Below the pieces are notes generated by a model. The model searched no databases. It saw nothing but the letters and a program-made list of their open reading frames with translations, and was not told where the DNA came from. From contig CAKOHW010000001.1 of the NCBI GenBank assembly GCA_934086185.1, forward strand, positions 75,966 through 107,965: a stretch of DNA of 32,000 nt, read 5' to 3'. This document shows, one piece after another, positions 6,458 to 26,456 of this stretch (its first letter is position 1; every line of letters starts with the position of its first letter). Both the position numbers and the translations under genes were made by a program. The DNA is from an uncultured Bacilli bacterium (GTDB lineage: Bacteria > Bacillota_I > Bacilli_A > RF39 > UBA660).

Positions 6458-6826
6458 TTAATATATATTATTATATAAATTTCCTACTTTTAATACTCTA
6501 TTTTCTTCATTAAGAGTATATAGTATTACACTTTTTTCTGGTTCAAAAAATTCTGTTATTACTCTTTCATTTAAATATTTTAAGTCACTTATGTTATTTG
6601 TTCCAACCATTATATATATTTTTTCAAAGTCACCTTTTTTATAACCTTCAGTTATAGCACTTGCTATTGCGATTTGTTCTGCATAAATTCCATCTCTATA
6701 AGTTGCGTTTTTTACAGTAACACCTTTAAAGTATGTTCCATCTTTCATTAAAACAATAGATGCAAAGCATGTTTTTTCATATGGTGAATAAGAATTACTT
6801 AATAAATTTTTTAATTCACTAATCAT
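6458..6826 (-). CDS. cytidine deaminase-fold paralog lacking zinc ligands (probably non-catalytic)
   Basis: Collinear with the adjacent cdd (YSPYEKTCFASIVLMKDGTYFKGVTVKNATYRDGIYAEQIAIASAITEGY). It has YAE in place of CAE and no PC..C motif. The likely start is ATG 6826 (MISELK) with a GGAGGAGGA SD inside the last codons of cdd. The 5' extension in the ORF track is an artefact. Confidence 0.6.
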   Translation of the reverse strand: MISELKNLLSNSYSPYEKTCFASIVLMKDGTYFKGVTVKNATYRDGIYAEQIAIASAITEGYKKGDFEKIYIMVGTNNISDLKYLNERVITEFFEPEKSVILYTLNEENRVLKVGNLYNNIY

Positions 6827-7208
6827 GTAAATCCTCCTCCCCAAATACATGTGGACAAAGTTCACTTAAAATAAATTCTTTTTTATTTCCAGATACATCA
6901 TATGAAATTAATTTTTTATCTAATTCAAAAAATTCTACTATTTGTTGTCTACATAAAAAGCATGGTGTAATTATATGATTAGCTTTACTCATTATATAAA
7001 TACTATCAAAGTCATATTTTGTATACCCGTTTGATATAGCTCTTCCTATCGCTACTTCTTCCGCACACATACCATCTTTAAATGATGGATTTTCTACATT
7101 AACTCCTTTAAAATATGTTCCGTCTTTCATTTTTACTATGCATGCTACTTTGAAATTACTGTAAGGTGTATATGCATTATCAATTATTTTTTTTAATTCT
7201 TCAAACAT
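6819..7208 (-). CDS. cdd: cytidine deaminase
   Basis: CAEEVAIGRAI (C/H-A-E zinc/catalytic motif) and PCFLCRQQIVEF (PC..C). The small homotetramer-type size fits. The ATG at 7208 (MFEELKK) has a gggg SD 7 nt upstream, whereas the track start at 7226 is a TTG. Confidence 0.85.
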   Translation of the reverse strand: MFEELKKIIDNAYTPYSNFKVACIVKMKDGTYFKGVNVENPSFKDGMCAEEVAIGRAISNGYTKYDFDSIYIMSKANHIITPCFLCRQQIVEFFELDKKLISYDVSGNKKEFILSELCPHVFGEEDLHD

Positions 7209-7222
7209 TATTTTTCCCCTTT

Positions 7223-7699
7223 TCAATTATTTAAATCTCTTTTTAATTTTTTACAGGTAATACTTATATCTCTTAAATTATCTTCGGTCTTTAAATTGGC
7301 CTTTGAATATTCTTGAATAGATTTTATATTTTTTAAAGTATTACCAAATTTATCTTTCATCCATTTTTGCGATGGCATTAGCCATACATGAAAGTGATAA
7401 TCACTTTTTTCTTCTTGTACTATATTGTAATTTTCACATATTCCATAACTTTTTAATAGTTTTAAAACTTTTGAAATTAATTTTATTAGTTTTAGTTGTT
7501 CTATTTCAGTTAAATCATTTATAGAAGAAATGTGCTTATTTGCTGAAATTATAATAAAGCCATTTATTGGTAATTCGAAATCTTGTGCTACATTAAATGT
7601 TTCATCTTTATATAAAATATTTATATTATTTTTTTCTAAGAAACAACCTAAACATCCATTTATTTCATAGTCTTTCCCATCATAACTAGTTATATTCAT
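7223..7699 (-). CDS. HIT-family (histidine triad-like) protein
   Basis: N-terminal C..C (GCLGCF) and a C-terminal triad-like YHFHVWLMP. The third His of the H.H.H motif is replaced by Trp. The start overlaps the ybeY stop by 4 nt (7696-7699). Confidence 0.65.
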   Translation of the reverse strand: MNITSYDGKDYEINGCLGCFLEKNNINILYKDETFNVAQDFELPINGFIIISANKHISSINDLTEIEQLKLIKLISKVLKLLKSYGICENYNIVQEEKSDYHFHVWLMPSQKWMKDKFGNTLKNIKSIQEYSKANLKTEDNLRDISITCKKLKRDLNN

Positions 7700-8878: not shown

Positions 8879-10312
8879 TTACTCTTTAGTTTTCTTTAAG
8901 ACTACTACTCCTCTTTTTTTACAACTGTCTTTTCCTTCTGGGCACGTTTTTAATACTTCACATGATGGCCCAAAAGATTTAGATACTAGAGGGGTTACAT
9001 TTGAAGCTAATCTTACCATTTCTTTAACAATATTTCTTATTTCCCATTGTGCTTTATTGCATGTACGCATTCTGCTAATCCATTCTAATGCTCTAGCGTT
9101 TAATGTTGTTGATACATTTAAACAATTCCCAGATAAATAAAAATATACTAAGTCTTCATCTCGAACACCTTGTTCCTTAAAATAATCTACTAATATTTTG
9201 TTATTTTCAAATATTTCTTTGTATTTTAATTCATGGGTTTTCTTTATACTTTCTGGCATTACATAATTATTTAAATTATTTAAAGGACAAAAATCAGGTA
9301 TCATAAGTGATTGCATTCTATGTCTAGTTAAATGTGTTAATACTGCAAGTGATATAGGAAATTCAAACTTATACATTACACATTCTAATTCTCTTTGATC
9401 TTTTTTATTTATTATTGCATCCATAAGTTTATCTTTTATATCTTTATCTACTCTTATCAATTCATATAAAAGAATACTTGCTTCTTCATATGATATGTCA
9501 TATCTATTTTGTAAAGTGCTGACTAATACTTTAAAATCTCCATTTTCTGTATAGTCTAATAAAGTTACTTTATCTATACTTTCTTCGTTACCTTTTAATT
9601 CATTATTATTAACATATTTATCTACAAAAGATAAATTATCTTTATAATAATCTTTGTTTTCTTCTTTTTTAAATTCTTCACTTAAGTATGGAGCATATTC
9701 TAATATTTTATTTTTTAATTTTGTAGCAAATTCTTTAACTTCAGTTATATTACTGTTTTTTCCATATAATAAATCACAAGTCATACGAATTAGTTCGTGA
9801 GCATCACATCCCATAATAATATTGGAATGGTATGAATATGGCAAAATAAATCTAGCATCTTCTATTGGGATTCCTTCATCATTTAATTCTCCATATTTAT
9901 TAAATAAACTTTGCATGTAATTATTATAGATGTTTTTTAATTTTTCATTATTATGTAAAACATTACCATTTTTATCTTTAAAATCTGGTGTATAAAAACC
10001 TGCATTTCTAAAATCTACATTACGTCTTGATTTTATTGTAAATGATGTTAATCTATAACTAATTATAATTTGTTCTATTATAGGTGTAACATCTTCTATT
10101 GCAAAAACTAAATAATCATGTTCTAATATAGATTTATGACCAGAATTTAAAATAAGTTTTATTAACTTTAAATTTTTTTCATAATCATTTCTACTATTAT
10201 AAACCTCTGTTACTGTTCCGTTTGCTCTTGATAAATTACCTGCTGATGCAACTATTTTTACTCTATTTTCTACTTCATCTTTAGTAGAATTACCTAGCAT
10301 TAATACTTTCAT
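8879..10312 (-). CDS. thyX: tandem (fused double) ThyX-like FAD-dependent thymidylate synthase
   Basis: Two ThyX-like halves. The N-half has SILEHDYLVFAIEDVTPIIEQIIISYRLTSFTIKSRR (RHR degenerated to SYR, S....S.R retained) and EDARFILPY. The C-half has HLTRHRMQSL (RHR..S) and ARALEWISRMRTCNKAQWEIRN. It is about twice the normal ThyX length. Confidence 0.65.
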   Translation of the reverse strand: MKVLMLGNSTKDEVENRVKIVASAGNLSRANGTVTEVYNSRNDYEKNLKLIKLILNSGHKSILEHDYLVFAIEDVTPIIEQIIISYRLTSFTIKSRRNVDFRNAGFYTPDFKDKNGNVLHNNEKLKNIYNNYMQSLFNKYGELNDEGIPIEDARFILPYSYHSNIIMGCDAHELIRMTCDLLYGKNSNITEVKEFATKLKNKILEYAPYLSEEFKKEENKDYYKDNLSFVDKYVNNNELKGNEESIDKVTLLDYTENGDFKVLVSTLQNRYDISYEEASILLYELIRVDKDIKDKLMDAIINKKDQRELECVMYKFEFPISLAVLTHLTRHRMQSLMIPDFCPLNNLNNYVMPESIKKTHELKYKEIFENNKILVDYFKEQGVRDEDLVYFYLSGNCLNVSTTLNARALEWISRMRTCNKAQWEIRNIVKEMVRLASNVTPLVSKSFGPSCEVLKTCPEGKDSCKKRGVVVLKKTKE

Positions 10313-11859: not shown

Positions 11860-13491
11860 GTGAATAATATTTTAATTAAAATTAGTTCTAATTTACTTAC
11901 TTTTTCATTAACTAAAAAAAATAATGAAGACTTGAATAATACTAATATTATTAGTACTAAAGAATTATATTTTGATTTAGATTATATAAAAGATAATATA
12001 GAATTAGTAAGTAGTTTTTTAAATACTATAATAATTAAAAATAATATTGATAAAGTTAGAATAGATAATATAATTATTGTGTGTTTAGTATTAGATTTAG
12101 TTAATAATAGTAATATTAAAAAAATACTTATTAGCGAAAATAAATCTATAAATTATGATATATTTTTAAAATTACTTAATAATCAAAATTTAGAATATTT
12201 AAATTGTTATGATATACCTCCTTTCTTATTTGAAAGATTAAATGTAAATAATACTAATTTAAAAATTGATGTTAGAAGTGAAATATTTTTCTTAAGTAAA
12301 TTTATGGAAGATAATAAATTATATAAATATTCTGATATATATTATAAAAAGAATATAGTTATTAATAGTAATTTTAATCCTCAAGAGTTAGAAGACTTTA
12401 AAACATTTATGAGAATAAATAATTGTTTAAAAGAAATACATATTAAAAATTATACTAATGATTTAATTTATTCTATTATAGATATATTTAAAGAGAATAA
12501 TATTAAAGATAAAATTATAGTATTTTATGAAAATAAAAATATAAATATTATAGTTAATTCTATAAATTATTTAAAAAATATTTATAAAGATTATTTAGAG
12601 AGTAATAATATAGATTTTAAAATTGTTTATTCTAAAGAATATAAAAGAAAAAATATGTTTAAACAAATAAATTTTGTTACTTTAAAATATATATGTTTTG
12701 TACTTATTAGTGGTGCTTTAGTATTTTCTGGATTTGATTTTTATAAAAATTATTCTGCTAAGAAGAAAGTTGATGATATAAATAATTCATTAACAGATAT
12801 TTTAGATGATTTTGAATATACTGATGATACTGAAACTAGTGATGTTGAATATATAGATACAGTAGAAAATGAACAAGCAAATAATATTAATTATAATAGT
12901 AATTATTTAGATTCTTATTATGCTACTTATTCTAAAATGTTTGAAGAATTATCAAATATTAATGATGAAACTGTTGGTTGGATAACTGTTAATAAAACTA
13001 AAGTTAATTATCCTGTTGTACAACATACTGATAATAATTACTATTTGAAACATGATTTTAAAAAGAATAATAATGCTTATGGTTGGATTTTTATGGATTA
13101 TAGAAATAATATATATAATATGAGTGATAATACTATACTTTATGGACATAATTCTGTTAAAGATGCAATGATGTTTGGTTCTTTAAGATATACAACTAAT
13201 GAATCTTGGTATAAAAATTCTGAAAATCAAATTATTACGTTTAATACTAAAGTTAAAAATATGAAATGGAGAATATTTTCTATTTATAGAATACCTGTTA
13301 CAAATGATTATTTATATGCTAACTTTGCTGATAGAAATGAATATCAAACTTTCTTAAATACTTTAAAAGGAAGAAGTATATATGATTTTGGAGTTGAAGT
13401 TAATAGTGATGATCATATATTAACTCTTTCTACTTGTGGAACAAGTGTTGCACAAAGAATGGTTATTCATGCAGTATTGATAAAAGAATAA
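11860..13491 (+). CDS. srtB: class B sortase with ~260-aa N-terminal extension and TM anchor
   Basis: The C-terminal ~200 aa read VGWITVNKTKVNYPVVQHTDNNYYLKHDF...ILYGHN...LTLSTC, with catalytic His and TLSTC Cys. TM helix is YICFVLISGALVFSGFDFY. The start codon is GTG. Confidence 0.72.
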   Translation: MNNILIKISSNLLTFSLTKKNNEDLNNTNIISTKELYFDLDYIKDNIELVSSFLNTIIIKNNIDKVRIDNIIIVCLVLDLVNNSNIKKILISENKSINYDIFLKLLNNQNLEYLNCYDIPPFLFERLNVNNTNLKIDVRSEIFFLSKFMEDNKLYKYSDIYYKKNIVINSNFNPQELEDFKTFMRINNCLKEIHIKNYTNDLIYSIIDIFKENNIKDKIIVFYENKNINIIVNSINYLKNIYKDYLESNNIDFKIVYSKEYKRKNMFKQINFVTLKYICFVLISGALVFSGFDFYKNYSAKKKVDDINNSLTDILDDFEYTDDTETSDVEYIDTVENEQANNINYNSNYLDSYYATYSKMFEELSNINDETVGWITVNKTKVNYPVVQHTDNNYYLKHDFKKNNNAYGWIFMDYRNNIYNMSDNTILYGHNSVKDAMMFGSLRYTTNESWYKNSENQIITFNTKVKNMKWRIFSIYRIPVTNDYLYANFADRNEYQTFLNTLKGRSIYDFGVEVNSDDHILTLSTCGTSVAQRMVIHAVLIKE

Positions 13492-14799: not shown

Positions 14800-17700
14800 C
14801 TAGAATAAACTTAATTGACTTGATTCTGGTAAATCTTTAAGTATTCCTAAAAGTCTCATTTTTTCTATTGCCGATGTATTAACTTTTCCTCTATTTTGTA
14901 AGTCTTCTATACTTATATATTTACCTTTTTCTCTTTCAAGAGTAATTTGATTACAAACTTGTGCTCCTAAACCATCTAATGCTCTAAATGGCAATATTAA
15001 ACTCTTATTATCTTCATCAACTAAGAAATATCTACTATGTGATTTTTCTATATTAATATTTTTAAATGTAAAACCTCTCGCAGTCATTTCTAGACAAACA
15101 TTTAATACATCTAAAGTATTACTTTCTTTATTTGTGATATCGTAACCTTTTGCTTGTAATTCTTCTATTTTTGCTCGTATTGCTGTTTCTCCTTTTATCA
15201 TTGAATCTACATCAAAATCATCACATCTTATTGAGAAATAAGCTGCATAATACCATAATGGATGATGTACTTTAAAGTATGCGATTCTAAATGCACTTAT
15301 TACATATGCTGCAGCATGGGCTTTAGGGAACATGTATTTTATTTTTCTACATGAATCTATAAACCACTCTTCTATTCCTGCATCACGCATTTCTTTGTCC
15401 CACATTTTCCAAGTTTCTGGATCTTTACTAGCTTTTCCTTTTCTTACAAATTCCATTATTTTAAATGCTTTTTTGGGTTCTAATCCATGATACATTAAGT
15501 AAACCATTATATCGTCACGACATCCTATAACATCTTTGAAATCTACAATATTATTTCTAATAAGTTCTTGTGCATTTCCAAGCCATACATCTGTTCCGTG
15601 TGACAAACCAGATATTTTTATCAATTCTGAAAATGTTGTTGGTTTTGTGTCCATAAGCATTCCGATTACGAATTTTGTACCAAATTCTGGTACTCCTAGT
15701 GTTCCAGTTTGACACATTATTCTTTCGCTATCAACACCTAATGGCTCTGGTGATGAAAATATTCCCATAGTTGCTTTATCATCTAACGGTACTTTTGTAA
15801 CATCCATTCCAGATAAATCTTGTAACATTCTTAATACAGTTGGATCATCGTGTCCAAGAATATCTAGTTTTAATACATCTTGATCTATTGCATGGTAATC
15901 AAAGTGTGTAGTTCTCCAAGCACTTTCTGGATCATCGGCAGGGAATTGGAATGGTGTAAAATCGAATACATCCATGTAACCAGGTATAACAACTATGCCT
16001 CCTGGGTGTTGTCCTGTGGTTCTTTTAATTCCTGTACATCCCATTGCTAATCTTTCTATTTCAACATTTCTTAGATTTATTCCTTTATCTTCACAATAGC
16101 CTTTAACGAATCCAAATGCTGTTTTTTCGGCTACAGTTCCTATTGTTCCTGCTCTATATACATTGTCTACACCGAATAATACTTTTGTATATTCATGTGC
16201 ACTTGCTTGATTATCTCCTGAAAAGTTAAGATCGATATCTGGAACTTTGTCAGCGTTAAATCCTAAGAAAGTAGCGAATGGCATATCTTGTCCTTCTTTA
16301 CTAAATGGTATATGACAATTAGGACATTCTTTATCTGGTAAATCATATCCACTTGAATATTCACTACCCAAACTTCTTCCATCATCAAATGTAAATATAC
16401 TTTTTTTACATTCATGGCATATGTAATGTGCTGGTAATGGATTTACTTCAGTTATACCCATCATTGTTGCGACAAATGAAGATCCTACACTACCACGTGA
16501 ACCAACTAAGTAGCCATCATCATTTGAATGTTTAACAAGTTTTTGGGCAATTAAATAAATAACGTCAAAGCCTCCACCTATTATTCCACCTAAACTTTTT
16601 TTAGTTTCTTTATTTAATTCTTCATCAGTTAATTCATTATTTTTTTCTTTAATACTCTCTTTTGTGATTTCAAAAACTTTATCGTAACCTTCTTTAATAA
16701 TTTTACTCAAAGTTTCATAAAATTTGTCTTCAAAATCATTTTCATTTAAATCTGGAAATTCTAATTTAACTAAATTTTTTATTAGTGCTAATATTCCGTC
16801 TCCATATAGCTCTTGAGCAATTCTACTTTCAATATTTCTAGGAAGTGGATTTCCATATAAACTATATGCTTTATCATAAACTAAGTTATAAACTTCAGTT
16901 CTTGAATCACCCATTTTTGGAGAGAACGGTATACCACCTGTTTCAATTATTACTTCTATTATTTCAACACTATCCGCTATTTTTTTAGGATTATCAATAA
17001 CTAATTCATGTGCTAAATCTTCTCCTAAAAATTTAAAATCTTCTAACATTTCATTAGTTGTTCTAAAATGGTTTTCTGGTATATGTGTAATATTCGTTCT
17101 GCTTAATGGATGTCTTCCACCTCCAGGTACTTTTTGGTTAATAATTATCTCTCTATATATTTTGTCTTCTCTATTTAAATAATGTACATCTCCTGTTGCT
17201 ATAATAATTTTACCTTGGTCTTTTGTACACTCTATTATTTTTTTGATATTTTCTTCTAGTTCAAATTCATTTAAGAAATCTCCTTGATCGATTAAATGTG
17301 TATAACAATCTTTAGGTTGTACTTCTACATAATCATAGAAATCTATTAAAGAACGTAGTTCATCATCACCTTTATTTCTTGCTTCTATGAATACTTCAGA
17401 TTCATAACAACCACTACCAATTAATAAACCATCTCTTAATTCTTCTATTTTACTTCTTAAAATTCTTGGTGTCTTATATAGATATGTAGTATTTGCATAA
17501 CTTATTATTTTAAATAGATTTTTTAAACCAGTTTTATTTTGAACAAGTATATTTATATGATATGTTCTACCATATTTATGAATTTCTTTTTGACTTACAA
17601 GATTATTTAATTCATTAACATTTTTAAATTGTCTGCTTCTTAATTTATTAATCATTTTAGCAAGTACATATGCTGTCCCTTCAGCATCGTAGTCTGCTCT

Positions 17701-19335
17701 ATGATGAGCTGTTTCATCCCATGGTACATCATATCTTTTTACTAATGCAGATAAACCATGTTTAGAATATTCTGGATCTAATGCACGAGACAATTCTAAT
17801 GTATCAATTACACAATTAGTAAATTCTCCTAGGTTATATTTTTCATAACACATTTTTAAGAATGCTGTATCGAATTTTGCGTTATGTGCTACCATTGGAT
17901 AATCTTTAAACCATTCGATAAATCTTTTAACAACAGTTTCTTCATCATCTTTACCTTTTAACATATCGTCTGTGATATTAGTAACTTCAATTATTTTATA
18001 TGGTAAAGGTCTTTTTGGATCTATCAATTCATCAAATCTATCAATTATTTCACCATTTTTTATTAAAACTGCTCCGATTTCAATAATAGAGTCTGCTCCA
18101 CCGGCATTAAAACCAGTTGTTTCTAAATCGAATACACAATATGTAGTTTCTAATAAGTCTTTATCTATAGGTCTTGTTACAATTCTTATTGTGTCATCAA
18201 CCATTGTTAATTCACAACCATAAATTGCTTTGAATTTATCTTTTTCTTCTTTTCCCTTATTATAATCTGTTACGAAATGATATACTTCTGGAAAAGATTG
18301 TGCTCCATTATGGTCTGTTATGCCTATTGCTTTATGTCCCCATTTTGTAGCAGTTTTAAGTAGACTTTTAGCACTTGCGCATCCATCCATTTGACTCATC
18401 ATTGTATGTGCATGAAGTTCGATACGTTTTTCTTCGCTTTCATCTTTAACAGAAACATCTTTACTTGGAATTTCTTCCATATCTCTTATATTTAAAACCA
18501 TATCATGGGCGAATTGATCATTTTTTACATATCCTCTAATTTTATACCAATTACCAGTTGTTATTGATTTAGTTATTTTTTTAAATTCATCTTCATCTTT
18601 TGAAAATATCTTTGCTAAAATACTATCTGTTTTATCACTTACTTTTAGAGTTAATATTTTAAAATTACTTTTAGTAGATTCAAATATATCTATTCCAAAT
18701 ACATATGCTTCTACAGTTATATTATTATCTTCACCAATAATAGTATCTATTGTACTTATTTTACTTTTTATAGTTTCCCCCATTATTACTGTATTTTTAG
18801 TTTCTTCAGTTTTTACTATTTCTACTTTAGTTTCTTTTATTTCTTTTTTTACTTCTGCTTTTAATTCTTCATTATAAATACAATTTATTGTTAGATTACC
18901 AATTCCTAATTTTTCTAATTCTGCTAATATTTTTTTACTTTCTTTTTTTAGAAGTTCTTCTTCTACATTACTTATTACTTCTATATTTATAACATTATTA
19001 TCAACAGTTATTTTATTATTAATAATACTTGATAATGCTGGTGAAACTTTAATTAATTCAGTTAAAAAATATTTAAAATAACTTATAATATCTTCATTTG
19101 TTATGTTATTATTTTTAAAATAAATATTTATTGTTGATACATTATCTATACCTTTTTTTGATATATTAATTAAGTTCATTGCATCTTCTACATTTATAGT
19201 TTTATCATTTTCTATAAATACACTCCAAGAGGAATTTAATTTATTTATAGAAACTTTTATTATTTTAGAAGACTTAAATAGTCCAATATCTGGAAAATTT
19301 ATTTTGTTTAAAAATCTAGTTAACTTCTCATCCAT
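14800..19335 (-). CDS. polC: DNA polymerase III alpha subunit, PolC type
   Basis: 1511 aa. PHP domain (ELHAHTMMSQMDG), inserted DnaQ-like 3'-5' exonuclease (YCVFDLETTGF...HNAKFDTAFL...HHRADYDAE), zinc finger (CHECKK...CPNC), and polymerase core (PDIDLNF, GVPEFGT). Confidence 0.97.
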   Translation of the reverse strand: MDEKLTRFLNKINFPDIGLFKSSKIIKVSINKLNSSWSVFIENDKTINVEDAMNLINISKKGIDNVSTINIYFKNNNITNEDIISYFKYFLTELIKVSPALSSIINNKITVDNNVINIEVISNVEEELLKKESKKILAELEKLGIGNLTINCIYNEELKAEVKKEIKETKVEIVKTEETKNTVIMGETIKSKISTIDTIIGEDNNITVEAYVFGIDIFESTKSNFKILTLKVSDKTDSILAKIFSKDEDEFKKITKSITTGNWYKIRGYVKNDQFAHDMVLNIRDMEEIPSKDVSVKDESEEKRIELHAHTMMSQMDGCASAKSLLKTATKWGHKAIGITDHNGAQSFPEVYHFVTDYNKGKEEKDKFKAIYGCELTMVDDTIRIVTRPIDKDLLETTYCVFDLETTGFNAGGADSIIEIGAVLIKNGEIIDRFDELIDPKRPLPYKIIEVTNITDDMLKGKDDEETVVKRFIEWFKDYPMVAHNAKFDTAFLKMCYEKYNLGEFTNCVIDTLELSRALDPEYSKHGLSALVKRYDVPWDETAHHRADYDAEGTAYVLAKMINKLRSRQFKNVNELNNLVSQKEIHKYGRTYHINILVQNKTGLKNLFKIISYANTTYLYKTPRILRSKIEELRDGLLIGSGCYESEVFIEARNKGDDELRSLIDFYDYVEVQPKDCYTHLIDQGDFLNEFELEENIKKIIECTKDQGKIIIATGDVHYLNREDKIYREIIINQKVPGGGRHPLSRTNITHIPENHFRTTNEMLEDFKFLGEDLAHELVIDNPKKIADSVEIIEVIIETGGIPFSPKMGDSRTEVYNLVYDKAYSLYGNPLPRNIESRIAQELYGDGILALIKNLVKLEFPDLNENDFEDKFYETLSKIIKEGYDKVFEITKESIKEKNNELTDEELNKETKKSLGGIIGGGFDVIYLIAQKLVKHSNDDGYLVGSRGSVGSSFVATMMGITEVNPLPAHYICHECKKSIFTFDDGRSLGSEYSSGYDLPDKECPNCHIPFSKEGQDMPFATFLGFNADKVPDIDLNFSGDNQASAHEYTKVLFGVDNVYRAGTIGTVAEKTAFGFVKGYCEDKGINLRNVEIERLAMGCTGIKRTTGQHPGGIVVIPGYMDVFDFTPFQFPADDPESAWRTTHFDYHAIDQDVLKLDILGHDDPTVLRMLQDLSGMDVTKVPLDDKATMGIFSSPEPLGVDSERIMCQTGTLGVPEFGTKFVIGMLMDTKPTTFSELIKISGLSHGTDVWLGNAQELIRNNIVDFKDVIGCRDDIMVYLMYHGLEPKKAFKIMEFVRKGKASKDPETWKMWDKEMRDAGIEEWFIDSCRKIKYMFPKAHAAAYVISAFRIAYFKVHHPLWYYAAYFSIRCDDFDVDSMIKGETAIRAKIEELQAKGYDITNKESNTLDVLNVCLEMTARGFTFKNINIEKSHSRYFLVDEDNKSLILPFRALDGLGAQVCNQITLEREKGKYISIEDLQNRGKVNTSAIEKMRLLGILKDLPESSQLSLF

Positions 19336-19754: not shown

Positions 19755-20888
19755 TTAGTAATTATACTTTCTCTCTAAATCTGTTTTTAAATTTGTATTA
19801 CTCATTTTTAAGTAACCTTTATAACTACCAGAACTTCTTAAATATTTTTCATAGTCATATAAATAAAGATTATCTAATTTTTTATTAATTCTTCTAATAG
19901 TTTTATTATTATACCTTATAAGCAATTTATTATTTTTATCAATTTTAAATACATAGCCTAAAAAACTAATGCCATTATTTAATTTATATATATTAGATTT
20001 AGCATTTGTAGATAGTTTTAATTCATTTATCTTTTTTTCTATTAATTTAAAATTTTCTTTTAATTTTTCTTTATCTGTATCTATAATTAATAAATCATCC
20101 ATATACCTAATATAATATTTATATTTTAATTCATCTTTAATAAAGTGATCTACATCATTTAAATAAAATATTGCTAGTATTTGACTTGTCATATTTCCTA
20201 TTGGTAAGCCTTTATTATATTCATATAATGGAATTTCATTAATTGTTTTTATTTTTTTAGTTTTTTCATTATCACTTATGTTTAGACTTTTTATATAATT
20301 TATTTTTTCTTTTTTTAGAAATTCTATTCTTTCATTAACATATTTTTCATTAGTAGAATTAATAATTATTTTTAATAGACTTAATGCTTTTTTATCTTTT
20401 ATATATTTTTTTATTTTTTTGAATATGATTTCGTGATCAATATTATAAAAGTATTTTTTTATATCAATTTTTAATATATATATATCTTTATTTAAATATT
20501 TTAATTTATTTATATATTCTATAAATTTTTTAAAAGCGTAACTACTTCCTTTATTAATTCTGGTTGCAACATTAGTATCAATTAATTTACTTTCAAGGCA
20601 TGGTAAAAGTATATATTTACTTACTAAGTGATTTACCAATTTATCAGGAATATTTTCACTCATTATTATTCTATATTTTGGATCTCTTATCATAAATATT
20701 CTATAATAACTAAATTTATACTCGCCTTTATAAAGTTTTGTTAAAATATTAAAAATGTTAGTGTTTAAATTCAATCTAAAATTATAAACTGCCTCTTTAT
20801 TTTTACAATTTCTTTTTATTTTATGAAACATATTTAAAGCATGTTCATAAACTAATATTTCATTATATATATTATCAATTCTTTTCAT
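19755..20888 (-). CDS. DGR-type reverse transcriptase
   Basis: RT motifs are RIIMSENIPDKLVNHLV, ILKIDIKKYFYNIDH, LPIGNMTSQILAIFYLN (the DGR-diagnostic IGxxxSQ in place of the group II intron motif) and YIRYMDDLLII (YMDD). There is no maturase or endonuclease domain. It lies next to the TR/VR pair. Confidence 0.9.
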   Translation of the reverse strand: MKRIDNIYNEILVYEHALNMFHKIKRNCKNKEAVYNFRLNLNTNIFNILTKLYKGEYKFSYYRIFMIRDPKYRIIMSENIPDKLVNHLVSKYILLPCLESKLIDTNVATRINKGSSYAFKKFIEYINKLKYLNKDIYILKIDIKKYFYNIDHEIIFKKIKKYIKDKKALSLLKIIINSTNEKYVNERIEFLKKEKINYIKSLNISDNEKTKKIKTINEIPLYEYNKGLPIGNMTSQILAIFYLNDVDHFIKDELKYKYYIRYMDDLLIIDTDKEKLKENFKLIEKKINELKLSTNAKSNIYKLNNGISFLGYVFKIDKNNKLLIRYNNKTIRRINKKLDNLYLYDYEKYLRSSGSYKGYLKMSNTNLKTDLERKYNY

Positions 20889-21222
20889 CTTTATAATCTA
20901 AACTATATATAATATTTCTAATTTCACCTAACATTTTTACGCATGATAAAAATCTTTTCTTTATTATTAATTTTTTTGTAAAAATCACTTCTAAATAAAA
21001 GTCTATCATCATAATATTTGATTTTATATCATTAATATATTTTTGTCTAATGTTTCCTTTATTAATACTAACTTTTGTAGTATTTTTTATCATTTCATAA
21101 TATTCGTCTATTATTTTTGTTCTTAATTGTTTTTCATTTTTAGGAAAAGATGGCACTATATATTGTTCAAAATATACTAGGAATGCTTTTTCTTTGCCTA
21201 ATACTATAAATTTATCATTCAT
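20875..21222 (-). CDS. avd: Avd-like accessory variability determinant (small helical bundle protein)
   Basis: 115 aa, basic, with a helical heptad-like pattern. It overlaps the RT start by 14 nt, the typical Avd position immediately 5' of the RT. The assignment rests on size, position and composition, not on a strong motif. Confidence 0.6.
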   Translation of the reverse strand: MNDKFIVLGKEKAFLVYFEQYIVPSFPKNEKQLRTKIIDEYYEMIKNTTKVSINKGNIRQKYINDIKSNIMMIDFYLEVIFTKKLIIKKRFLSCVKMLGEIRNIIYSLDYKDEKN

Positions 21223-21610
21223 ACTTCTCTCTTTCTATTCTTTGAATAGTATAGTAACAAATTTATAATAATTTTTGTCAAACTTTGTCGATAATATGCT
21301 TTTTTGCGTTTAAAAGATTAAAATTCGAATCATAATTAATGTATATTTGAATTTTCGACACAAAAATATGTATTTTTAGAATAATGTATATTAATAACTT
21401 TAAATCTACAAATTAAAAACTACGTCAAATAAAAAAGATTACAATTTATAATAAATGTCTTTTCACAATAATATTACTAGCACATTTATATTTTGTAATC
21501 TAATATTTAGGTTTTAGCCAAGGAATTTTGCTTGTTTCAGGTAGGCATCTCTCCAGCATAGCACATAAGTGTTATGAGATAGCCATTAAATATTTGAAAA
21601 TATTTCTTGA

Positions 21611-21735
21611 AATTGCGGGACGGGCACCAATGTTGTTGTCATTGTTGACGTTGTTGTTGTTCAAGTTGCCATCATTGTTCACGTTGAACGCGTTGTCGTT
21701 GTTGTTGTTGAAGTTGGAGCGAGACAAAGACCAAT
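21611..21735 (-). repeat. DGR template repeat (TR), non-coding
   Basis: 125 nt, collinear with 22461-22585 (offset 850). 106 positions are identical. All 19 mismatches are T on the plus strand here, meaning A on the minus (sense) strand. In the VR frame it reads WSLSRSNFNNNNDNAFNVNNDGNLNNNNVNNDNNIGARPAI, with 18 AAY codons. The 76-aa plus-strand ORF 21528-21758 over it is spurious. Confidence 0.92.
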
Positions 21736-21835
21736 CTGTAAAGAGAAGAAAATACTAACTCACCCTAACACCAAGAAGACGACTGCCTCATTAAAGAGCA
21801 AAATCCCTAAATAAATATATAAAATATATTAATAT

Positions 21836-22210
21836 TTATTCCATTATTATTTGTTGAATTGATTTTATCAAATTCAACATTTCGTCACTTTTCATAATAT
21901 CCAAATCTTTTGACAAGATTAATTCATTTATTTTTTTTAATTTTGTTTTTTCATCAATATTATCTGGGATGATAATTTTATAATCGATGCTTTTTTGTTT
22001 TAATAATTCTTCATATTTTGCTATTGAATTTTTTGGAAAACCACATTTATCACAAAAATTTGAAAATTTGGTTAATCTAAAATCAAACATTTCATTCAGT
22101 AATATTGCATCACTATCTAATGCAATATAAAAGTTTCCACATTCAAATAGATATATCGTTGTTTCATTTTTTTCTTTTAAACTTAAATACTTATCATATA
22201 TTTTACTCAT
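21836..22210 (-). CDS. stand-alone MutS domain I (mismatch-binding domain)-like protein, DGR accessory candidate
   Basis: IYDKYLSLKEKNETTIYLFECGNFYIALDSDAILLNEMFDFRLTKF...CGFPKNSIAKYEELLKQKSIDYKII is collinear with the MutS N-terminus as I recall it (M..QYL.lK......lLfFR.GDFYE.F..DA......L.I.LT.R....PM.G.P......Y...L...G..V.I). The Phe of the F-x-E mismatch wedge is kept (NFY) and the Glu is replaced by Ile. It is only 124 aa, with no connector, clamp or ATPase domains. Confidence 0.7.
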   Translation of the reverse strand: MSKIYDKYLSLKEKNETTIYLFECGNFYIALDSDAILLNEMFDFRLTKFSNFCDKCGFPKNSIAKYEELLKQKSIDYKIIIPDNIDEKTKLKKINELILSKDLDIMKSDEMLNLIKSIQQIIME

Positions 22211-22220
22211 AAATATTTTA

Positions 22221-22252
22221 AACTTTTGTCTTCTTTAGTGAAGACAAAAGTT
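22221..22252. other. 13-bp perfect hairpin immediately 5' of the MutS-like ORF start
   Basis: aacttttgtcttc-tttagt-gaagacaaaagtt. On the minus strand it sits between an AAGGAG box (22256-22261) and the ATG at 22210, and is followed by tttaaaatattt. It could be an attenuator or terminator, or a structure that bridges the SD to the start codon. Confidence 0.5.
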
Positions 22253-22267
22253 ATTCTCCTTTAACAA

Positions 22268-22297
22268 ATTATATCACACTATCGTGCAATTTGTTAA
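22268..22297 (-). promoter_or_regulatory. candidate internal promoter for the MutS-like ORF/TR/avd/RT transcript
   Basis: Minus strand TTAACA-18 nt-TATAAT with a perfect extended -10 (TGaTATAAT, 22276-22268). It is embedded in a 10-bp AT inverted repeat (22261-22270 / 22288-22297). Confidence 0.4.
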
Positions 22298-22313
22298 CTC
22301 TTTTTATATTGTT

Positions 22314-22339
22314 GTCCTGTGGAAGGGTTTCCACAGGAC
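22314..22339. other. GC-containing 10-bp hairpin downstream of the DGR target gene
   Basis: gtcctgtgga-agggtt-tccacaggac. It is unusually GC-rich for this genome. The minus-strand side has no T-run, while the plus-strand side has tttt. Confidence 0.55.
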
Positions 22340-22365
22340 TTTTACTAGTTTGCAGTTCAATGTCC

Positions 22366-22383
22366 GTAGGACTAAAGTCCTAC
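22366..22383. other. 7-bp stem / 4-nt loop hairpin 2 nt after the target-gene stop
   Basis: gtaggac-taaa-gtcctac. It shares the gtcct/aggac core with the 22314-22339 hairpin. No T-run follows on the minus strand. Confidence 0.5.
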
Positions 22384-22385
22384 TA

Positions 22386-24260
22386 TTAACTCTCCGTTAC
22401 TTTATATGGATTTCCTATTGTTCCATCTCCACTTGCTATTTGTGCACCAGTGGCTAAAGTAACTGCGGGACGGGCACCAAAGTTGCTGTCATCGTAGACG
22501 CCGTCGTTGTTCAAGCTGCCATCATCGTTCACGCTGAACGCGAGGTCGTCGTAGTCGTCGAAGCGGGAGCGAGACAAAGACCAATAATATGATTGTGCAT
22601 TGTCATATAAATAATAGAATTTATTAGAATAACCAGCCTGTCCTCCTGCGTATGCTATTTCATCTGCTGTTAATGTTCCTATATAATCACTTATGCTGTC
22701 TTCTTCACTTGAACATTTTAATGTTGCGTTTCTTTCTACACCTTTTCCCCATAATCTTTTTCCTGCTGTGTAATAATAAGTTCCATAATCATTTTCTATC
22801 TGTGTTACTTCTGCGTCTGTTAATAACACTCCAGTTGATGAATTATATCTATAATTATCACTTCCACCTAAGCACCATTTTTCATTTTTTAATAATGATT
22901 TCTTATTTTCTAATCCACTTGATGTATACCATGCTTTTAATGTTGTATATAATCCTCCACTATAATTTTTATAATCTGCGTAATATTTGCTATTAATTGT
23001 TTTATAACCATATGCTATTGTTGCTCCATTATTTATTAAAGCTGATTTGGTATCTGATGATGTTATTGTACTACATAATCCTTCTTTGGCTAAGATTATT
23101 TTTATAGATCCATCGCCTTCAACACGTACTATTCTCCAACACATATTATTAAATTCTATGTAATTGTCTTTGACTCCACCTCTATAATAATAAGAGTCGC
23201 CATAATCATCAGTTGTTGCCGATAATGTTGCTTCTGTCGAATATGATACTGCTGACACTCTTTTTGCTTTCATTGTTATTGAACTTGTACTGCTTGCTGG
23301 TGCTGTTGTTACTTTATATATACTTGATAAATTTGTTGTTGTTTTTTGAGTATTTGTACTTGCTGAATTACTACTTGCACTTGTTGATACTATATATTTT
23401 CCTACCAATGTTGTATTACATGTTCCATCATTGTATTTACATGTTGTAACTCCTGTTAATGTGAATTTACCAGTACTTTCATCTATTGTATACCCTGTTC
23501 CATATGTCCAGTAATATCCTTGATATGTTGTTGTTATGCTTACTGAACTTTCGCTTGTTGCTTCATCTACTTGATCAGTATAATATTTATAACTTACTGC
23601 TTGTGCAGGTGTTGTTAATGGAGTTGCACTAAATGTTGTTCCATTTTTTGCTAATTTTGCATTGTTTATTATTGCATATGATAATGATGTTTGTTCATAT
23701 GGCATGAATTCTCCATTACTGTTTTTACCAAATATTTGTAATTTTGCTTGTAATACTTTTCCCATATCTACACTTTGATCTGTATTTGTATCTTTATATG
23801 TAAATTTAAATGTGTATGTATGAGTTTTTTTAGGTTCTATTTCATTTGTTATTAATTGTTTTATTCCATTTGGAAATGTTGTTTCTGTTGTTACTTCATT
23901 ACATGCTATTGTTCCATCTGTTGTGCAATTTAATGTATATTTAACATCATCTACTCTTTCAAATGTATTTATTACATCTATTAAATATACTCCATATTCT
24001 ACATTTGCATTTCCTTCGTTTTTTACTGTGAATGTTTTAGTATATACTGTATCACTTGGTAATAAGTTTTCTCCTCCAATTACTCCATCACTTCCATCGC
24101 CATATACTAATTTTAAATCTGCTGTTGTTACACTGATGCTCTTATCGTTAGTGTTTCCTTGTATTCTTGTTAAAAAGTATGCATATGTTAATCCTAACAA
24201 TGCTAATAATACTATTGTTATTCCTACTACACTAACTATGATTTTTTGTTTTCTATTCAT
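22386..24260 (-). CDS. secreted DGR target protein: SipW/TasA-type signal and N-domain, Thr/Ser-rich linker, C-terminal lectin-like VR domain
   Basis: The likely start is ATG 24260 (MNRKQK) with an aggagg SD; the track extends it to 24293. The signal region IVLLALLGLTYAYFLT resembles the SipW-dependent (TasA/camelysin-type) signal motif ..GTYAYF.. as I recall it. The middle holds S/T-rich tracts (STSASSNSASTNTQKTTTN, APASSTSS). At the C-terminus, ..LTADEIAYAGG...YYWSLS...GARPAV resembles the DUF1566/C-type-lectin-fold ends used by DGR targets. The VR is followed by a 24-aa tail (TLATGAQIASGDGTIGNPYKVTES). Confidence 0.85.
   Translation of the reverse strand: MNRKQKIIVSVVGITIVLLALLGLTYAYFLTRIQGNTNDKSISVTTADLKLVYGDGSDGVIGGENLLPSDTVYTKTFTVKNEGNANVEYGVYLIDVINTFERVDDVKYTLNCTTDGTIACNEVTTETTFPNGIKQLITNEIEPKKTHTYTFKFTYKDTNTDQSVDMGKVLQAKLQIFGKNSNGEFMPYEQTSLSYAIINNAKLAKNGTTFSATPLTTPAQAVSYKYYTDQVDEATSESSVSITTTYQGYYWTYGTGYTIDESTGKFTLTGVTTCKYNDGTCNTTLVGKYIVSTSASSNSASTNTQKTTTNLSSIYKVTTAPASSTSSITMKAKRVSAVSYSTEATLSATTDDYGDSYYYRGGVKDNYIEFNNMCWRIVRVEGDGSIKIILAKEGLCSTITSSDTKSALINNGATIAYGYKTINSKYYADYKNYSGGLYTTLKAWYTSSGLENKKSLLKNEKWCLGGSDNYRYNSSTGVLLTDAEVTQIENDYGTYYYTAGKRLWGKGVERNATLKCSSEEDSISDYIGTLTADEIAYAGGQAGYSNKFYYLYDNAQSYYWSLSRSRFDDYDDLAFSVNDDGSLNNDGVYDDSNFGARPAVTLATGAQIASGDGTIGNPYKVTES
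22461..22585 (-). repeat. DGR variable repeat (VR) inside the 3' end of the target gene
   Basis: Encodes WSLSRSRFDDYDDLAFSVNDDGSLNNDGVYDDSNFGARPAV. It differs from the TR only at TR-adenine positions: 13 A>G, 4 A>T and 2 A>C on the sense strand. The 3' end carries a GC-rich IMH-like tract, GGTGCCCGTCCCGC, identical in TR and VR. Homology stops abruptly at both ends. Confidence 0.92.
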
Positions 24261-24319
24261 ATTAACTCCTCCTAAAAAATAAAATACCAACAACTTCGTG
24301 TATTGTATTTTCTAAAATA

Positions 24320-24348: not shown

Positions 24349-24440
24349 CATTTTTTTATTTTTTCTTTTAAATAGTGAGTTTATAGCGATTTTTAGTTTA
24401 CTTTTTCTATTTTTGTTAATATAATAGTTATAATTATTTA

Positions 24441-24461
24441 AACCAACTACTTTGTTGTTTT
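24441..24461. promoter_or_regulatory. operator-like inverted repeat, copy 1 (downstream of XRE gene, upstream of DGR target promoter)
   Basis: aaccaacTactttgttgtttt differs at 1 of 21 nt from copy 2 at 24863-24883. A ttgataat box follows at the same 11-nt spacing. The 20/21 match sits inside a looser ~50-nt similarity block. Confidence 0.4.
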
Positions 24462-24589
24462 ATTAATTATTTTGATAATTTTTTCCATAAAAAAAAGTGC
24501 AACTATGCTCCAATTGCCCTTTTTTGTGTCTAAAATGTTTAACTATTTGTTATATGGATATGTTATAATCATATTAGAACTATAAGAAA

Positions 24590-24805
24590 CTATCTTTGAC
24601 GATTAACTAGAAGTAAAGCTGGGTCTATTTTTAAACCTTTTGCAATTTTTTCTACTGTGTCAATTGTCACTTTTCTGTCAGTTCTTTCAATATCTCCAAT
24701 ATAGTTTGCACTCATCCCTGATAATTCGGCTAATCTTTCTTGAGAGATATTTAATTGTCTTCTATAATATTTCACATTTTCTTTAAATACTTGTCTTAAA
24801 GTCAT
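24590..24805 (-). CDS. XRE-family helix-turn-helix transcriptional regulator
   Basis: LNISQERLAELSGMSANYIGDIERTDRKVTIDTVEKIAKGLKIDPALLL is a classic Cro/C1-type HTH. The ATG at 24805 (MTLRQ) has GGAGG 10 nt upstream, whereas the track start at 24814 is too close to the SD. Confidence 0.8.
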   Translation of the reverse strand: MTLRQVFKENVKYYRRQLNISQERLAELSGMSANYIGDIERTDRKVTIDTVEKIAKGLKIDPALLLVNRQR

Positions 24806-24862
24806 TTTAACCATACCTCCATCTCATTAATATTATGGTATGATTTTTTTGAAATTATAACA

Positions 24863-24883
24863 ACCAACAACTTTGTTGTTTTC
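24863..24883. promoter_or_regulatory. operator-like inverted repeat, copy 2 (XRE / orphan-ORF divergent intergenic region)
   Basis: aaccaacAactttgttgtttt contains aacaac-ttt-gttgtt (6-bp arms). It is followed by an extended -10-like tTGaTAATAT (24892-24901) facing the plus-strand ORF at 24924. Confidence 0.4.
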
Positions 24884-24923
24884 GGCAAAAAATTGATAAT
24901 ATTTATAAGGAGTTGAGTAAAAA

Positions 24924-25187
24924 ATGAATAGAATTGATTTAATTATTGATATTATTGTAAATGATATTATTAAAAATAATGAAAGATATTTGAAAAATGG
25001 TTTTATAATTTTTTTGAATGGTGATGAAATAGAAATTGATTATAAAGATAAAATTTATTTTTTAACTATTCATGAAGAAGATAATAATATTTTTTGGTTA
25101 ATAAAATGTAATGAAAAAATTATAAAATTAAAAATAACTGATAATTTTGATGAAGTGTTAGATTTTATTATCAATAGTATTAATTAA
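24924..25187 (+). CDS. hypothetical 87-aa protein divergent from the XRE gene
   Basis: An aaggag SD lies upstream of the ATG. No recognisable motif. Confidence 0.45.
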   Translation: MNRIDLIIDIIVNDIIKNNERYLKNGFIIFLNGDEIEIDYKDKIYFLTIHEEDNNIFWLIKCNEKIIKLKITDNFDEVLDFIINSIN

Positions 25188-25361: not shown

Positions 25362-25438
25362 TGGTGTCCTCGGAGCGACTCGAACGCTCGACCGTACGCT
25401 TAGAAGGCGTATGCTCTATCCAGCTGAGCTACGAAGAC
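25362..25438 (-). tRNA. tRNA-Arg (anticodon TCT), CCA encoded
   Basis: The reverse complement GTCTTCGTAGCTCAGCTGGATAGAGCATACGCCTTCTAAGCGTACGGTCGAGCGTTCGAGTCGCTCCGAGGACACCA folds as a cloverleaf. Acceptor stem GTCTTCG/CGAGGAC, D-arm GCTC/GAGC, anticodon stem TACGC/GCGTA with loop CTTCTAA, T-arm GAGCG-TTCGAGT-CGCTC. Confidence 0.95.
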
Positions 25439-25559: not shown

Positions 25560-26456
25560 GTGAGAGGAGTTGTTCGTTTGAATAACAATTTAAAAATTTT
25601 GTATGATGCTTATTTTAAATATATTTTTAATAAGCGTTTTGGAATTATGTATATGTCTCGTATTATCTCTACTCTATTTGATTTAGATTATGATGATTTG
25701 GTAAATAATATTGTAGTTGCTAGCACTGAACATGTTAGAAGTAAGTCTATTAAATCTAGTTTTAGTGATGTTATTTATATGTATAGAAATAAAAGATTTA
25801 TTATTGAAATGAACAATTCTTATACTTCTGAAATTGTTTATAAAAATCATTTCTATTTATTTTATCATCATATATTTGATGCCGAAAATAAGAATTCATA
25901 TAATAGCAACATAGAAACTTATTTAATCGATATAGATAATTTTGATATACTTGATAAGTTACATAAAAAAGATATGAAACATGAATTTATTTATCAATCA
26001 AGATTAATATTAGATAATACATTATATAGTTTATATCCCAATATACGAGCTGTTAGAATAAATCTTGATTATTTAAAGAAGAAACAGTATAATTATGGTA
26101 TGTTAAGTGATATAGAAAGAGATTGTCTTATATTTACAACAAATGATTTAAATGTTTTAAGAAAAGAGACAAAGGTCGAAAATATTGAAGGAGTGATTGA
26201 AATGTTTAAGATGGTATATGAAAATGGAGAGATATATCCAGTATTCGATGAAGAAAAGTTTCATGAGGCAGAAAAGAGAGACATGTACAGACAAGGTGAA
26301 GAAGATGGTATTGAGAAAGGTATTGAACAAGGCATTGAGCAAGGTTCTGTAAATGAAAAAATATCAATTGCAAAAATTTTAAGAAAGAAAAATTTCACTG
26401 ATAAAGATATTATGGAGATTACTGGTATTACTAAATCTCAAATAAAGAGTATTTAA
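25560..26456 (+). CDS. Rpn-family recombination-promoting nuclease / PD-(D/E)XK putative transposase
   Basis: N-terminal D.YFKYIF, a core resembling D(V)...(R)FIIEMN (PD-(D/E)XK-like), and a C-terminal GIEKGIEQGIEQG repeat followed by IAKILRKKNFTDKDIMEITGITKSQIKSI. That C-terminal pattern is typical of this family as I recall it. The real start is probably TTG 25578, 7 nt after a GAGGAG SD. Confidence 0.65.
   Translation: MRGVVRLNNNLKILYDAYFKYIFNKRFGIMYMSRIISTLFDLDYDDLVNNIVVASTEHVRSKSIKSSFSDVIYMYRNKRFIIEMNNSYTSEIVYKNHFYLFYHHIFDAENKNSYNSNIETYLIDIDNFDILDKLHKKDMKHEFIYQSRLILDNTLYSLYPNIRAVRINLDYLKKKQYNYGMLSDIERDCLIFTTNDLNVLRKETKVENIEGVIEMFKMVYENGEIYPVFDEEKFHEAEKRDMYRQGEEDGIEKGIEQGIEQGSVNEKISIAKILRKKNFTDKDIMEITGITKSQIKSI

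Follow-up and report, generated by a model that had tools for sequence, protein, structure and literature searches.

Evidence for an active chromosomal diversity-generating retroelement with an MSL accessory gene in an uncultured gut Bacilli bacterium

Does the group of co-oriented genes and repeats lying directly upstream of polC in an uncultured, AT-rich gut Bacilli bacterium constitute a diversity-generating retroelement (DGR) and, if so, does it belong to the cell and is it still at work? The question is raised by the 32 kb of DNA analysed here (the window, from contig CAKOHW010000001.1), in which an earlier note had described a complete, cellular DGR. We found every defining feature of a DGR that lends itself to testing by sequence. 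The parts and the families to which they belong could be established directly, each item of the earlier parts list being present where it had been placed, on the minus strand, in the order target gene with its variable repeat (VR), msl, template repeat (TR), structured spacer, avd and reverse transcriptase (RT) gene, after which comes polC. The description of the element as complete was upheld by the combination of a DGR-type RT with a TR/VR pair whose differences lie at adenines only. It is, in our judgement, very probable that the locus is a chromosomally encoded, currently active DGR with the MSL-containing architecture, in a bacterium that carries sporulation genes.

The repeats provide the first part of the evidence. 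A repeat search showed the TR/VR pair to be the one outstanding direct repeat of the window, with 85% identity and 850 nt between the copies, and the non-coding copy matches the 3′ end of the gene for a 624-residue protein, as had been proposed; 24 further codons of that gene follow the VR. All 19 of the 19 mismatches between the two copies fall at TR adenines, and every one is in position 1 or 2 of a codon of the target open reading frame (ORF). The probability of such an outcome by chance is 8e-11 (hypergeometric; 43 adenines in 123 positions). The GC-rich sequence TTGGTGCCCGTCCCGCA, which closes the VR at its 3′ end and resembles an initiation of mutagenic homing (IMH) site, occurs in exactly two copies in the window and never in shuffled sequence, and directly past it the two repeats diverge, reading GTTAC in the VR and ATTTC in the TR. 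Such an arrangement is typical of DGRs, in which the VR ends in a GC-rich IMH and the TR carries a diverged counterpart, IMH*. Both repeats are local GC maxima (34-40%).

Adenine-specific diversification was also observed directly between natural populations. At least 21 metagenome contigs encode an RT identical in sequence to that of the window, and nine same-species loci, mostly from Hadza and other human-gut samples, were recovered at 99.4-100% identity to the window across 6.5-10.5 kb. The TR is identical in all nine contigs; the window and the seven contigs that include the VR hold six distinct VRs. Four of these are of equal length and differ from the TR at 19-23 positions each, with 83 of the 85 differences in total at TR adenines, and 38 of the 40 columns that vary among the four are TR adenines. 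At the protein level, 15 proteins of one 90%-identity cluster are near-identical outside residues 566-594 and present at least seven VR variants. Two of the contigs have their start immediately 3′ of the VR, which is usual where an assembly collapses on a hypervariable stretch. The expectation that VR heterogeneity should be found at TR adenines was thus borne out between public metagenome samples, the TR being invariant, and we read the DGR as active because its VR alleles differ in this way between samples over an unchanged template. Two observations pull the other way: two of the 85 changes lie off TR adenines, and the diversification was seen at the level of populations only.

Two further VR alleles (L086:5676-5803 and L088:5676-5797) have one codon more or one codon fewer than the unchanged TR, and both length changes fall within the (AAC)4-GAC-AAC run, which suggests slippage during cDNA synthesis or integration.

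The RT carries the motifs IGNMTSQ (residues 230-236) and YMDD (residues 262-265), which had been noted before and proved to be invariant across 26 homologues. It ends after the thumb, and RVT_1 was the sole domain found, with no maturase or endonuclease domain. These are the properties of a DGR RT, which has motif 4 of the form [I/L/V]GxxxSQ together with YxDD and is free of maturase and endonuclease domains; judged by its motifs and domain composition, the enzyme is of the DGR type. Its closest solved structure is PDB 8ub7 ('Reverse transcriptase', 328 residues, 1e-28), which we take to be the Bordetella phage bRT, and group II intron RTs matched at 1e-7 or weaker.

Other classes of RT, marked by intron RNA domains with a maturase (group II introns), by an msr-msd RNA (retrons) or by a match to a defence-type RT model together with effector domains (Abi, DRT), were considered and rejected. 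The score against the NCBIfam model group_II_RT_mat was 98.6 bits, compared with a cutoff of 300, the NCBIfam retron models scored far under their cutoffs, and so did Drt3a among the defence RTs. A scan of the 32 kb with Rfam returned one tRNA only, and neither intron RNA nor retron RNA. With PADLOC, the generic RT model was best (8.9e-31) and RT_UG4 (1e-27) and RT_UG17 (1e-25) were close behind, so that this search alone does not separate the enzyme from defence RTs.

Several of the following results depend on a family of related loci, obtained by scanning GTDB species representatives with the RT alignment. This gave at least 80 loci, those listed being almost all from uncultured gut 'Bacilli', 'Tenericutes' and CAG-type metagenome-assembled genomes (MAGs) of human, rabbit, chicken and ruminant origin; the closest RT among the matches listed is 73% identical. 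Self-comparison of 89 loci revealed an adenine-biased TR/VR pair in 48, and the usual order is VR, TR, avd, RT.

The helical ORF that overlaps the start of the RT gene had been taken to encode Avd, and matches among its homologues bear this out: 27 of 35 homologues from related loci match the Pfam family bAvd (best 1.2e-15) and 30 of 35 match the NCBIfam model DivGenRetAVD (best 1.6e-14). We assign the protein to Avd because of these matches across the family. The window protein itself gives a weak precomputed match to bAvd (PF22296). Less favourable to the assignment are its score against DivGenRetAVD, which at 2.6e-6 is under the curated cutoff, and the failure of a profile of the homologues to find any solved Avd by sequence; phmmer likewise found nothing for Avd.

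The target protein begins with a hydrophobic signal or anchor, continues with a Ser/Thr-rich middle and ends in a DUF6273-like, C-type-lectin-like domain (residues 341-624), in agreement with its earlier description as a secreted protein carrying the VR at the 3′ end of its gene. (The ORF listing extends the gene to a TTG at 24293, giving 22386-24293 and 635 residues; gene callers use the ATG at 24260.) The N-terminal part has a weak TasA/camelysin-like similarity (Peptidase_M73, 1.8e-4, below the Pfam cutoff). The C-terminal 284 residues gave no Pfam or NCBIfam match, and the DUF6273 assignment is made because some homologues of the target carry PF19789 (DUF6273) and because of the predicted fold. 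An AlphaFold2 model of the domain, built from 68 sequences, reached a pLDDT of 95.8; Foldseek matched it to viral DUF6273 proteins with a probability of 1.0 and a TM-score of only about 0.4, and also to an IgA peptidase of Thomasclavelia ramosa whose N-terminal domain is DUF6273. A C-type-lectin-like character has been reported for DUF6273 domains in DGR targets (PMC10743442). On the modelled fold, then, the VR lies near the 3′ end of a coding gene in a DUF6273-type, C-type-lectin-like domain, as is characteristic of DGRs, whose variable domains are C-type-lectin-like or Ig-like, and this C-terminal domain is common across the family of related loci.

The positions of all parts, together with those of the RNA and DNA elements considered below, are collected in Table 1.

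Table 1. Features of the DGR cassette and the adjoining polC gene, in coordinates of the window.
Feature	Position	Strand	Length	Remarks
Target gene	22386-24260	minus	624 aa	From ATG at 24260
VR	22461-22585	minus	125 nt	Encodes aa 559-600 of the target; proposed recipient of mutagenised cDNA
IMH-like GC-rich 3′ end of VR, TTGGTGCCCGTCCCGCA	22464-22480	minus	17 nt	Identical TR copy at 21614-21630
Hairpin GTCCTGTGGAA-ACCC-TTCCACAGGAC	22314-22339	minus		122 nt past VR end, just beyond target stop codon
Promoter-like site	22268-22297	minus		TTAACA, 18-nt spacer, TG-extended TATAAT; 11/12 consensus positions; upstream of msl
msl	21836-22210	minus	124 aa	MutS domain I only; between VR and TR; Pfam MutS_I 2.4e-11
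Duplex upstream strand UAGGGAUUUUGCU	21797-21809	minus		Analogue of 'cPRT stop' duplex; brackets TR
TR	21611-21735	minus	125 nt	Non-coding; 43 adenines, mostly in AAC codons
Spacer RNA module	21504-21541	minus		CCUGAAA, CAAG linker, AGCAAAAUUCCUU, short stem-loop, A-rich run
avd	20875-21222	minus	115 aa	14-nt overlap with RT start
RT	19755-20888	minus	377 aa	RVT_1 (Pfam) at 3.9e-17
polC	14800-19335	minus	1511 aa	ORF begins 419 nt beyond RT stop

The RNA elements around the TR became visible only by comparison across loci, not by folding of a single sequence. In Bordetella, cryo-electron microscopy has shown a template:primer duplex, an adjoining duplex in which the spacer pairs with sequence upstream of the TR, a stem-loop and adenosines (Handa et al., bioRxiv 10.1101/2023.10.23.563531), and the same layout has been predicted in 207 other DGRs (bioRxiv 10.1101/2023.10.23.563531). 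Each of these elements has its counterpart in the present family. The spacer strand AGCAAAAUUCCUU is the downstream partner of a long-range duplex of 12 bp (21797-21809 with 21520-21532), which is uninterrupted in 28 of 32 loci and shows more than one type of base pair at 11 of its 12 positions; its mean energy is -14.7 kcal/mol for cognate strands, compared with -8.6 for non-cognate ones (p = 1e-17). An AAACA(A/G)G anchor is present in 33 of 42 family loci, mostly 50-110 nt past the TR; the 12-13 nt behind it supply the spacer strand of the long-range duplex, and the segment before it pairs with sequence at and just past the TR 3′ end, again more stably in cognate than in non-cognate combinations (p = 1.5e-6). 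Compensatory variants of this pairing between TR end and spacer include UUUCCUC/GAGGAAA, UUUCUUCA/UGAAGAAA and UUUGAUAA/UUAUCAAA, and in the window CCUGAAA of the spacer pairs with AUUUCA at the TR 3′ end, forming a candidate template:primer duplex. In 26 of 32 loci a short stem-loop with A-rich sequence behind it completes the layout, and 20 different stems occur among them.

As this layout matches the Bordetella architecture, we infer that reverse transcription is cis-primed here as well. There are two points on the other side, namely that the TR:spacer duplex is weak in the window, with just 5 bp, and that the TR region of the window, folded alone, does no better than shuffled sequence (z = -0.3). 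The promoter-like site upstream of msl may serve as promoter for a transcript of msl, the TR RNA, avd and the RT gene; promoter assignments of this kind are tentative because matches to the pattern are about as frequent as in shuffled sequence (69 found, 60 expected).

These elements can be arranged into a scheme for the action of the DGR. An RNA extending from about 21809 to 21504 would be transcribed, possibly together with msl, and in it the segment just upstream of the TR would form the 12-bp duplex with the spacer, to be followed by the stem-loop and the A-rich run. The TR 3′ end would pair with a spacer segment ending in GAAA, where the RT-Avd complex would prime cDNA synthesis in cis, copy the TR and misincorporate opposite its adenines. 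The cDNA would then replace the VR of the target gene, guided by the shared GC-rich 3′ boundary and by the conserved hairpin after the gene, and up to about 20 codons, mostly AAC, would be re-randomised in the DUF6273-like, presumably ligand-binding domain of a secreted or surface protein. Finally, MSL would bind the densely mismatched cDNA:VR heteroduplex and keep host mismatch repair from restoring the parental sequence.

The ORF that encodes MSL had been listed in the earlier note as an extra reading frame of 124 codons between VR and TR, and the combination of features at the locus had been held to include several unusual traits. The ORF is indeed there and encodes a MutS_I protein; the 'extra' gene is, however, that of the published MSL accessory, found in 16 of 372 DGRs in a survey in which 'Architecture D' was defined and RT-MutS_I fusions were noted (Wu et al. 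2018, PMC5758913). The other traits are documented too, and the claim that they are unusual does not stand. A profile of 31 MSL homologues aligns to domain I of Taq MutS, E. coli MutS and MSH6, with the Gly of the GxFY motif and its Phe, residue 27 of MSL, invariant. MutS wedges this Phe into the mismatch, and its Glu is needed for mismatch discrimination. Homologues of MSL are encoded in at least 52 of the 80 listed related loci, either before avd, after the RT gene or fused to it, the fusion being to the RT C-terminus in at least 13 loci. No ORF of the cassette matched HRDC in Pfam or NCBIfam, and the joint presence of a MutS domain I protein and avd, with no HRDC, is that of MSL-type DGRs.

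Two results obtained with MSL were set aside. A phmmer search of the protein against the PDB returned Legionella RavZ (1.6e-5), which is probably spurious, the family profile matching MutS domain I instead; a Legionella DGR also carries MSL. The short msl (85 residues) of one related locus (L005) is due to a scaffold gap of Ns and not to a frameshift.

With regard to the function of MSL, it is relevant that Bacteroides DGRs encode Msl (bioRxiv 10.1101/2024.11.15.621889) and that VR mutagenesis in Bacteroides rises 5- to 10-fold when the host mutS is deleted, as an all-or-nothing effect (bioRxiv 10.1101/2024.11.15.621889). Because host MutS antagonises retrohoming there, the simplest reading of MSL, and to our mind the most likely one, is that it would act as a shield of the cDNA:VR heteroduplex against host mismatch repair. 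This proposal is weakened by the position equivalent to MutS Glu38, which is variable among the MSL homologues, not conserved. A non-conserved Glu beside an invariant Phe wedge would suit a protein that aids integration of the cDNA, by stabilising or recognising the heteroduplex or by recruiting MutL-type nicking, or that acts on the ribonucleoprotein (RNP), and the fusions of MSL to the RT suggest action with the RNP, not as a free competitor. Such a role is a serious possibility, if the less probable one; the antagonism by host MutS in Bacteroides makes a competitor simpler. One can also suppose that MSL, near-universal in the family and repeatedly fused to the RT, is integral to retrohoming, its Phe wedge binding the heteroduplex and blocking or redirecting mismatch repair, and that MSL and the hairpin of this lineage, with its ACCC or CTCY loop about 100 nt from the VR, together mark a mechanistically distinct DGR subtype. 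We regard this as doubtful; were it true, the one-codon length variants of the VR would reflect slippage on the (AAC)n template. Shielding of the heteroduplex remains our preferred role for MSL.

The hairpin that follows the target gene has an equivalent in 35 of 42 loci, in each case perfect, with a stem of 9-15 bp and 80-122 nt past the VR, compared with a frequency of 5% in background 260-nt windows. Covariation of the stems between loci was observed directly, and the loops are conserved as ACCC, CTCC or CTCT. BPP-1 depends for efficient retrohoming on a hairpin or cruciform past the VR, and such structures are common in DGRs (Guo et al., PMC3240598), and we consider the present hairpin to be a candidate for such a target-recognition hairpin or cruciform. 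Its form speaks against this: published VR hairpins have a GC-rich stem of 7-10 bp and a GRNA loop and lie 4-34 bp from the VR (PMC3240598), and the window hairpin departs from them with its ACCC loop and its distance of 122 nt. A location beyond the published range, adjoining the target stop codon and preceding the promoter-like site of msl, could also be that of a transcript-level element (a terminator, an attenuator or an mRNA stabiliser) with no part in target recognition. That explanation we think unlikely. The sense strand of 22314-22339 has no T-tract (U-tract in the RNA), and the hairpins are not intrinsic terminators for the minus-strand genes, because the terminator scan called hairpins on the plus strand only. 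Moreover, it is the loop that is conserved while the stem covaries, and the hairpin accompanies the VR and is absent after the TR, as has been described for DGR target hairpins. A role in target recognition is therefore the one we retain for it as a candidate.

A second perfect hairpin, with a stem of 13 bp (AACTTTTGTCTTC-ACTAAA-GAAGACAAAAGTT, 22221-22252), lies between the promoter-like site and the msl start codon; in several relatives, too, there are two hairpins, the second being 130-220 nt past the VR.

The surroundings of the cassette bear on its cellular nature. On the polC side the genes are recO, era, cytidine deaminases, ybeY, thyX, yqfD, a long sortase, spoIIP and polC; on the target side they are those for a small helix-turn-helix (HTH) protein, tRNA-Arg(TCT), an Rpn-family protein, thioredoxin, cvpA, RNase HIII and mscL. 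No phage genes (capsid, tail, terminase or integrase) were found in the 32-kb window, no RT among 50,697 phage records exceeds about 32% identity to that of the window, and the same chromosomal context occurs in four other long contigs of 128-466 kb. The housekeeping flanks and the distance from phage RTs accord with the view, already taken in the earlier note, that this is a cellular, non-phage DGR. A phage- or mobile-element-borne DGR (in a prophage remnant or an island), with the target as a receptor-binding protein, would gain something from the frequency of DUF6273 targets in gut phages, from the tRNA-Arg, the Rpn-family nuclease/transposase-like gene and the small HTH gene just upstream, and from the lineage-specific position of the cassette; set against housekeeping genes on both sides, no phage structural or integration genes among those sought, an RT remote from those of phages, a chromosomal context that recurs in long contigs and a target with an N-terminal signal or anchor, not a tail-fibre architecture, this origin appears highly improbable. 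Scarcely credible is a decayed or domesticated remnant, with the TR/VR pair left over from past activity and rewriting of the VR at an end, for, although only one VR allele is visible within the window and the evidence is between-sample, the six VR alleles stand over an identical TR with flanks 99.4-100% identical across 6.5-10.5 kb, all ORFs are intact and the RNA and hairpin elements are conserved.

The claim that the chromosomal DGR was inserted upstream of polC found limited support. In four relatives with a polC of 79-84% identity, the polC-spoIIP-107aa-sortase block is retained and no DGR lies upstream of polC, so that this position is specific to the present lineage; three of the four have a relA/spoT-family gene in place of the DGR, and one of these genomes has its DGR on another contig (L007 and L093 being the same MAG). 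Two more distant relatives (L025 and L013) have a DGR adjoining polC, on one side or the other. The DGR lies at a break in synteny, in keeping with an insertion, and the break may reflect either a gain here or a loss elsewhere. The presence of yqfD and spoIIP makes it plausible that the host is a sporeformer, as had been suggested. The host sequence is very AT-rich, with a mean GC content of 22.8% over the window, and the RT and avd genes (15-20%) and msl (about 20%) lie below this mean, whereas polC (17000-18600) has 26-30%.

Some further observations concern rearrangements at or near the cassette. In the closest other species among the matches listed (L061:4177-6366 and L006), an insert of about 3 kb separates the TR RNA module from avd and holds fragmented ORFs for IS256/Mutator-family transposases. 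In one scaffold (L001:1-2628), infB lies directly upstream of the target gene and homology to the window starts at the ATG (24260), so that the cassette may truly have been rearranged at its 5′ edge or the scaffold may be a chimera; a second contig (L002) has its start precisely at the target ATG. In the window itself, a 52-nt direct repeat (75% identical; 24432-24483 and 24853-24904) flanks the gene for the 74-residue HTH protein (24590-24814), for which 'control protein' models from restriction-modification and defence systems gave a match at 5e-16, and an unannotated ORF of 87 codons lies beside it on the plus strand (24924-25187). Between the DGR and thioredoxin-cvpA are the tRNA-Arg(TCT) gene (25362-25438) and the Rpn-family (recombination-promoting nuclease/putative transposase) gene (25560-26456), and this region is a possible rearrangement hot spot.

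On the polC side, the long sortase (11860-13491, plus strand; 540-550 residues) has its sortase domain at the C-terminus only and is kept beside polC-spoIIP in all relatives examined (L090-L093). Two tandem, overlapping ORFs (6458-6865 and 6819-7226) encode cytidine/deoxycytidylate deaminases of 135 residues each, and ThyX (8879-10312; 477 residues) contains two Thy1-matching stretches.

With this locus, an uncultured low-GC member of the human-gut Bacilli provides a clear case from nature of a cellular DGR at work. Its secreted lectin-like target is a candidate for strain-level adaptation of gut surface binding, since the VR alleles differ between people's metagenomes. The family as a whole supplies comparative evidence for the cis-priming RNA architecture outside Proteobacteria and Cyanobacteria, for a variant of the target hairpin and for a functional link of DGRs with a MutS-derived domain, a link that bears on how DGR heteroduplexes escape mismatch repair. 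The general picture of DGRs is unchanged by these findings.

The textbook form of a DGR is that of Bordetella phage BPP-1, with the order mtd-avd-TR-brt. The present element shares with it the adenine-specific transfer from TR to VR, the GC-rich shared 3′ boundary, Avd and RT, and the C-type-lectin-like variable domain, as well as the long-range duplex around the TR with a stem-loop and adenosines in the spacer. It differs from the phage-borne BPP-1 element in being chromosomal, in carrying an MSL gene and in having 24 codons after the VR. The TR here lies upstream of avd, and the upstream strand of the duplex is consequently non-coding, whereas in BPP-1 that strand is the avd 3′ end; the hairpin has an ACCC loop at 122 nt, compared with GAAA a few base pairs after the VR in BPP-1.

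A closer likeness is to the MSL-containing DGRs (PMC5758913; bioRxiv 10.1101/2024.11.15.621889), with which the cassette has in common the co-oriented target, msl, TR, avd and RT genes or repeats, a small MSL of MutS domain I only that co-occurs with avd and without HRDC, and RT-MutS_I fusions among its relatives. The differences are that the host is an uncultured gut Bacilli bacterium of 23% GC, that MSL is encoded between VR and TR, and that MSL is near-universal in this family, in at least 52 of 80 listed loci, compared with the 16 of 372 DGRs of the 2018 survey (PMC5758913). The target resembles the DUF6273 targets of gut phages, that is, the tentaclins and the Faecalibacterium prophage targets (PMC10743442, PMC11792537), in having a DUF6273-type lectin-like fold, as predicted, with the VR on its surface. 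The window protein matches no Pfam model in that region, only some of its homologues matching PF19789, and it is no phage tail component: it belongs to the cell, is secreted or anchored, and has weak TasA/camelysin-like similarity at its N-terminus.

Since there are published precedents for MSL-containing DGRs, for RT-MSL fusions, for DUF6273 targets and for VR hairpins, the element is a well-preserved example of a kind already described and not a new system; the literature likewise knows the RNA architecture and cellular DGRs of gut Firmicutes. It departs from known DGRs only in secondary features, namely the loop of the hairpin and its distance from the VR, the placing of the TR before avd, the length variants of the VR and the near-universal occurrence of MSL in its family.

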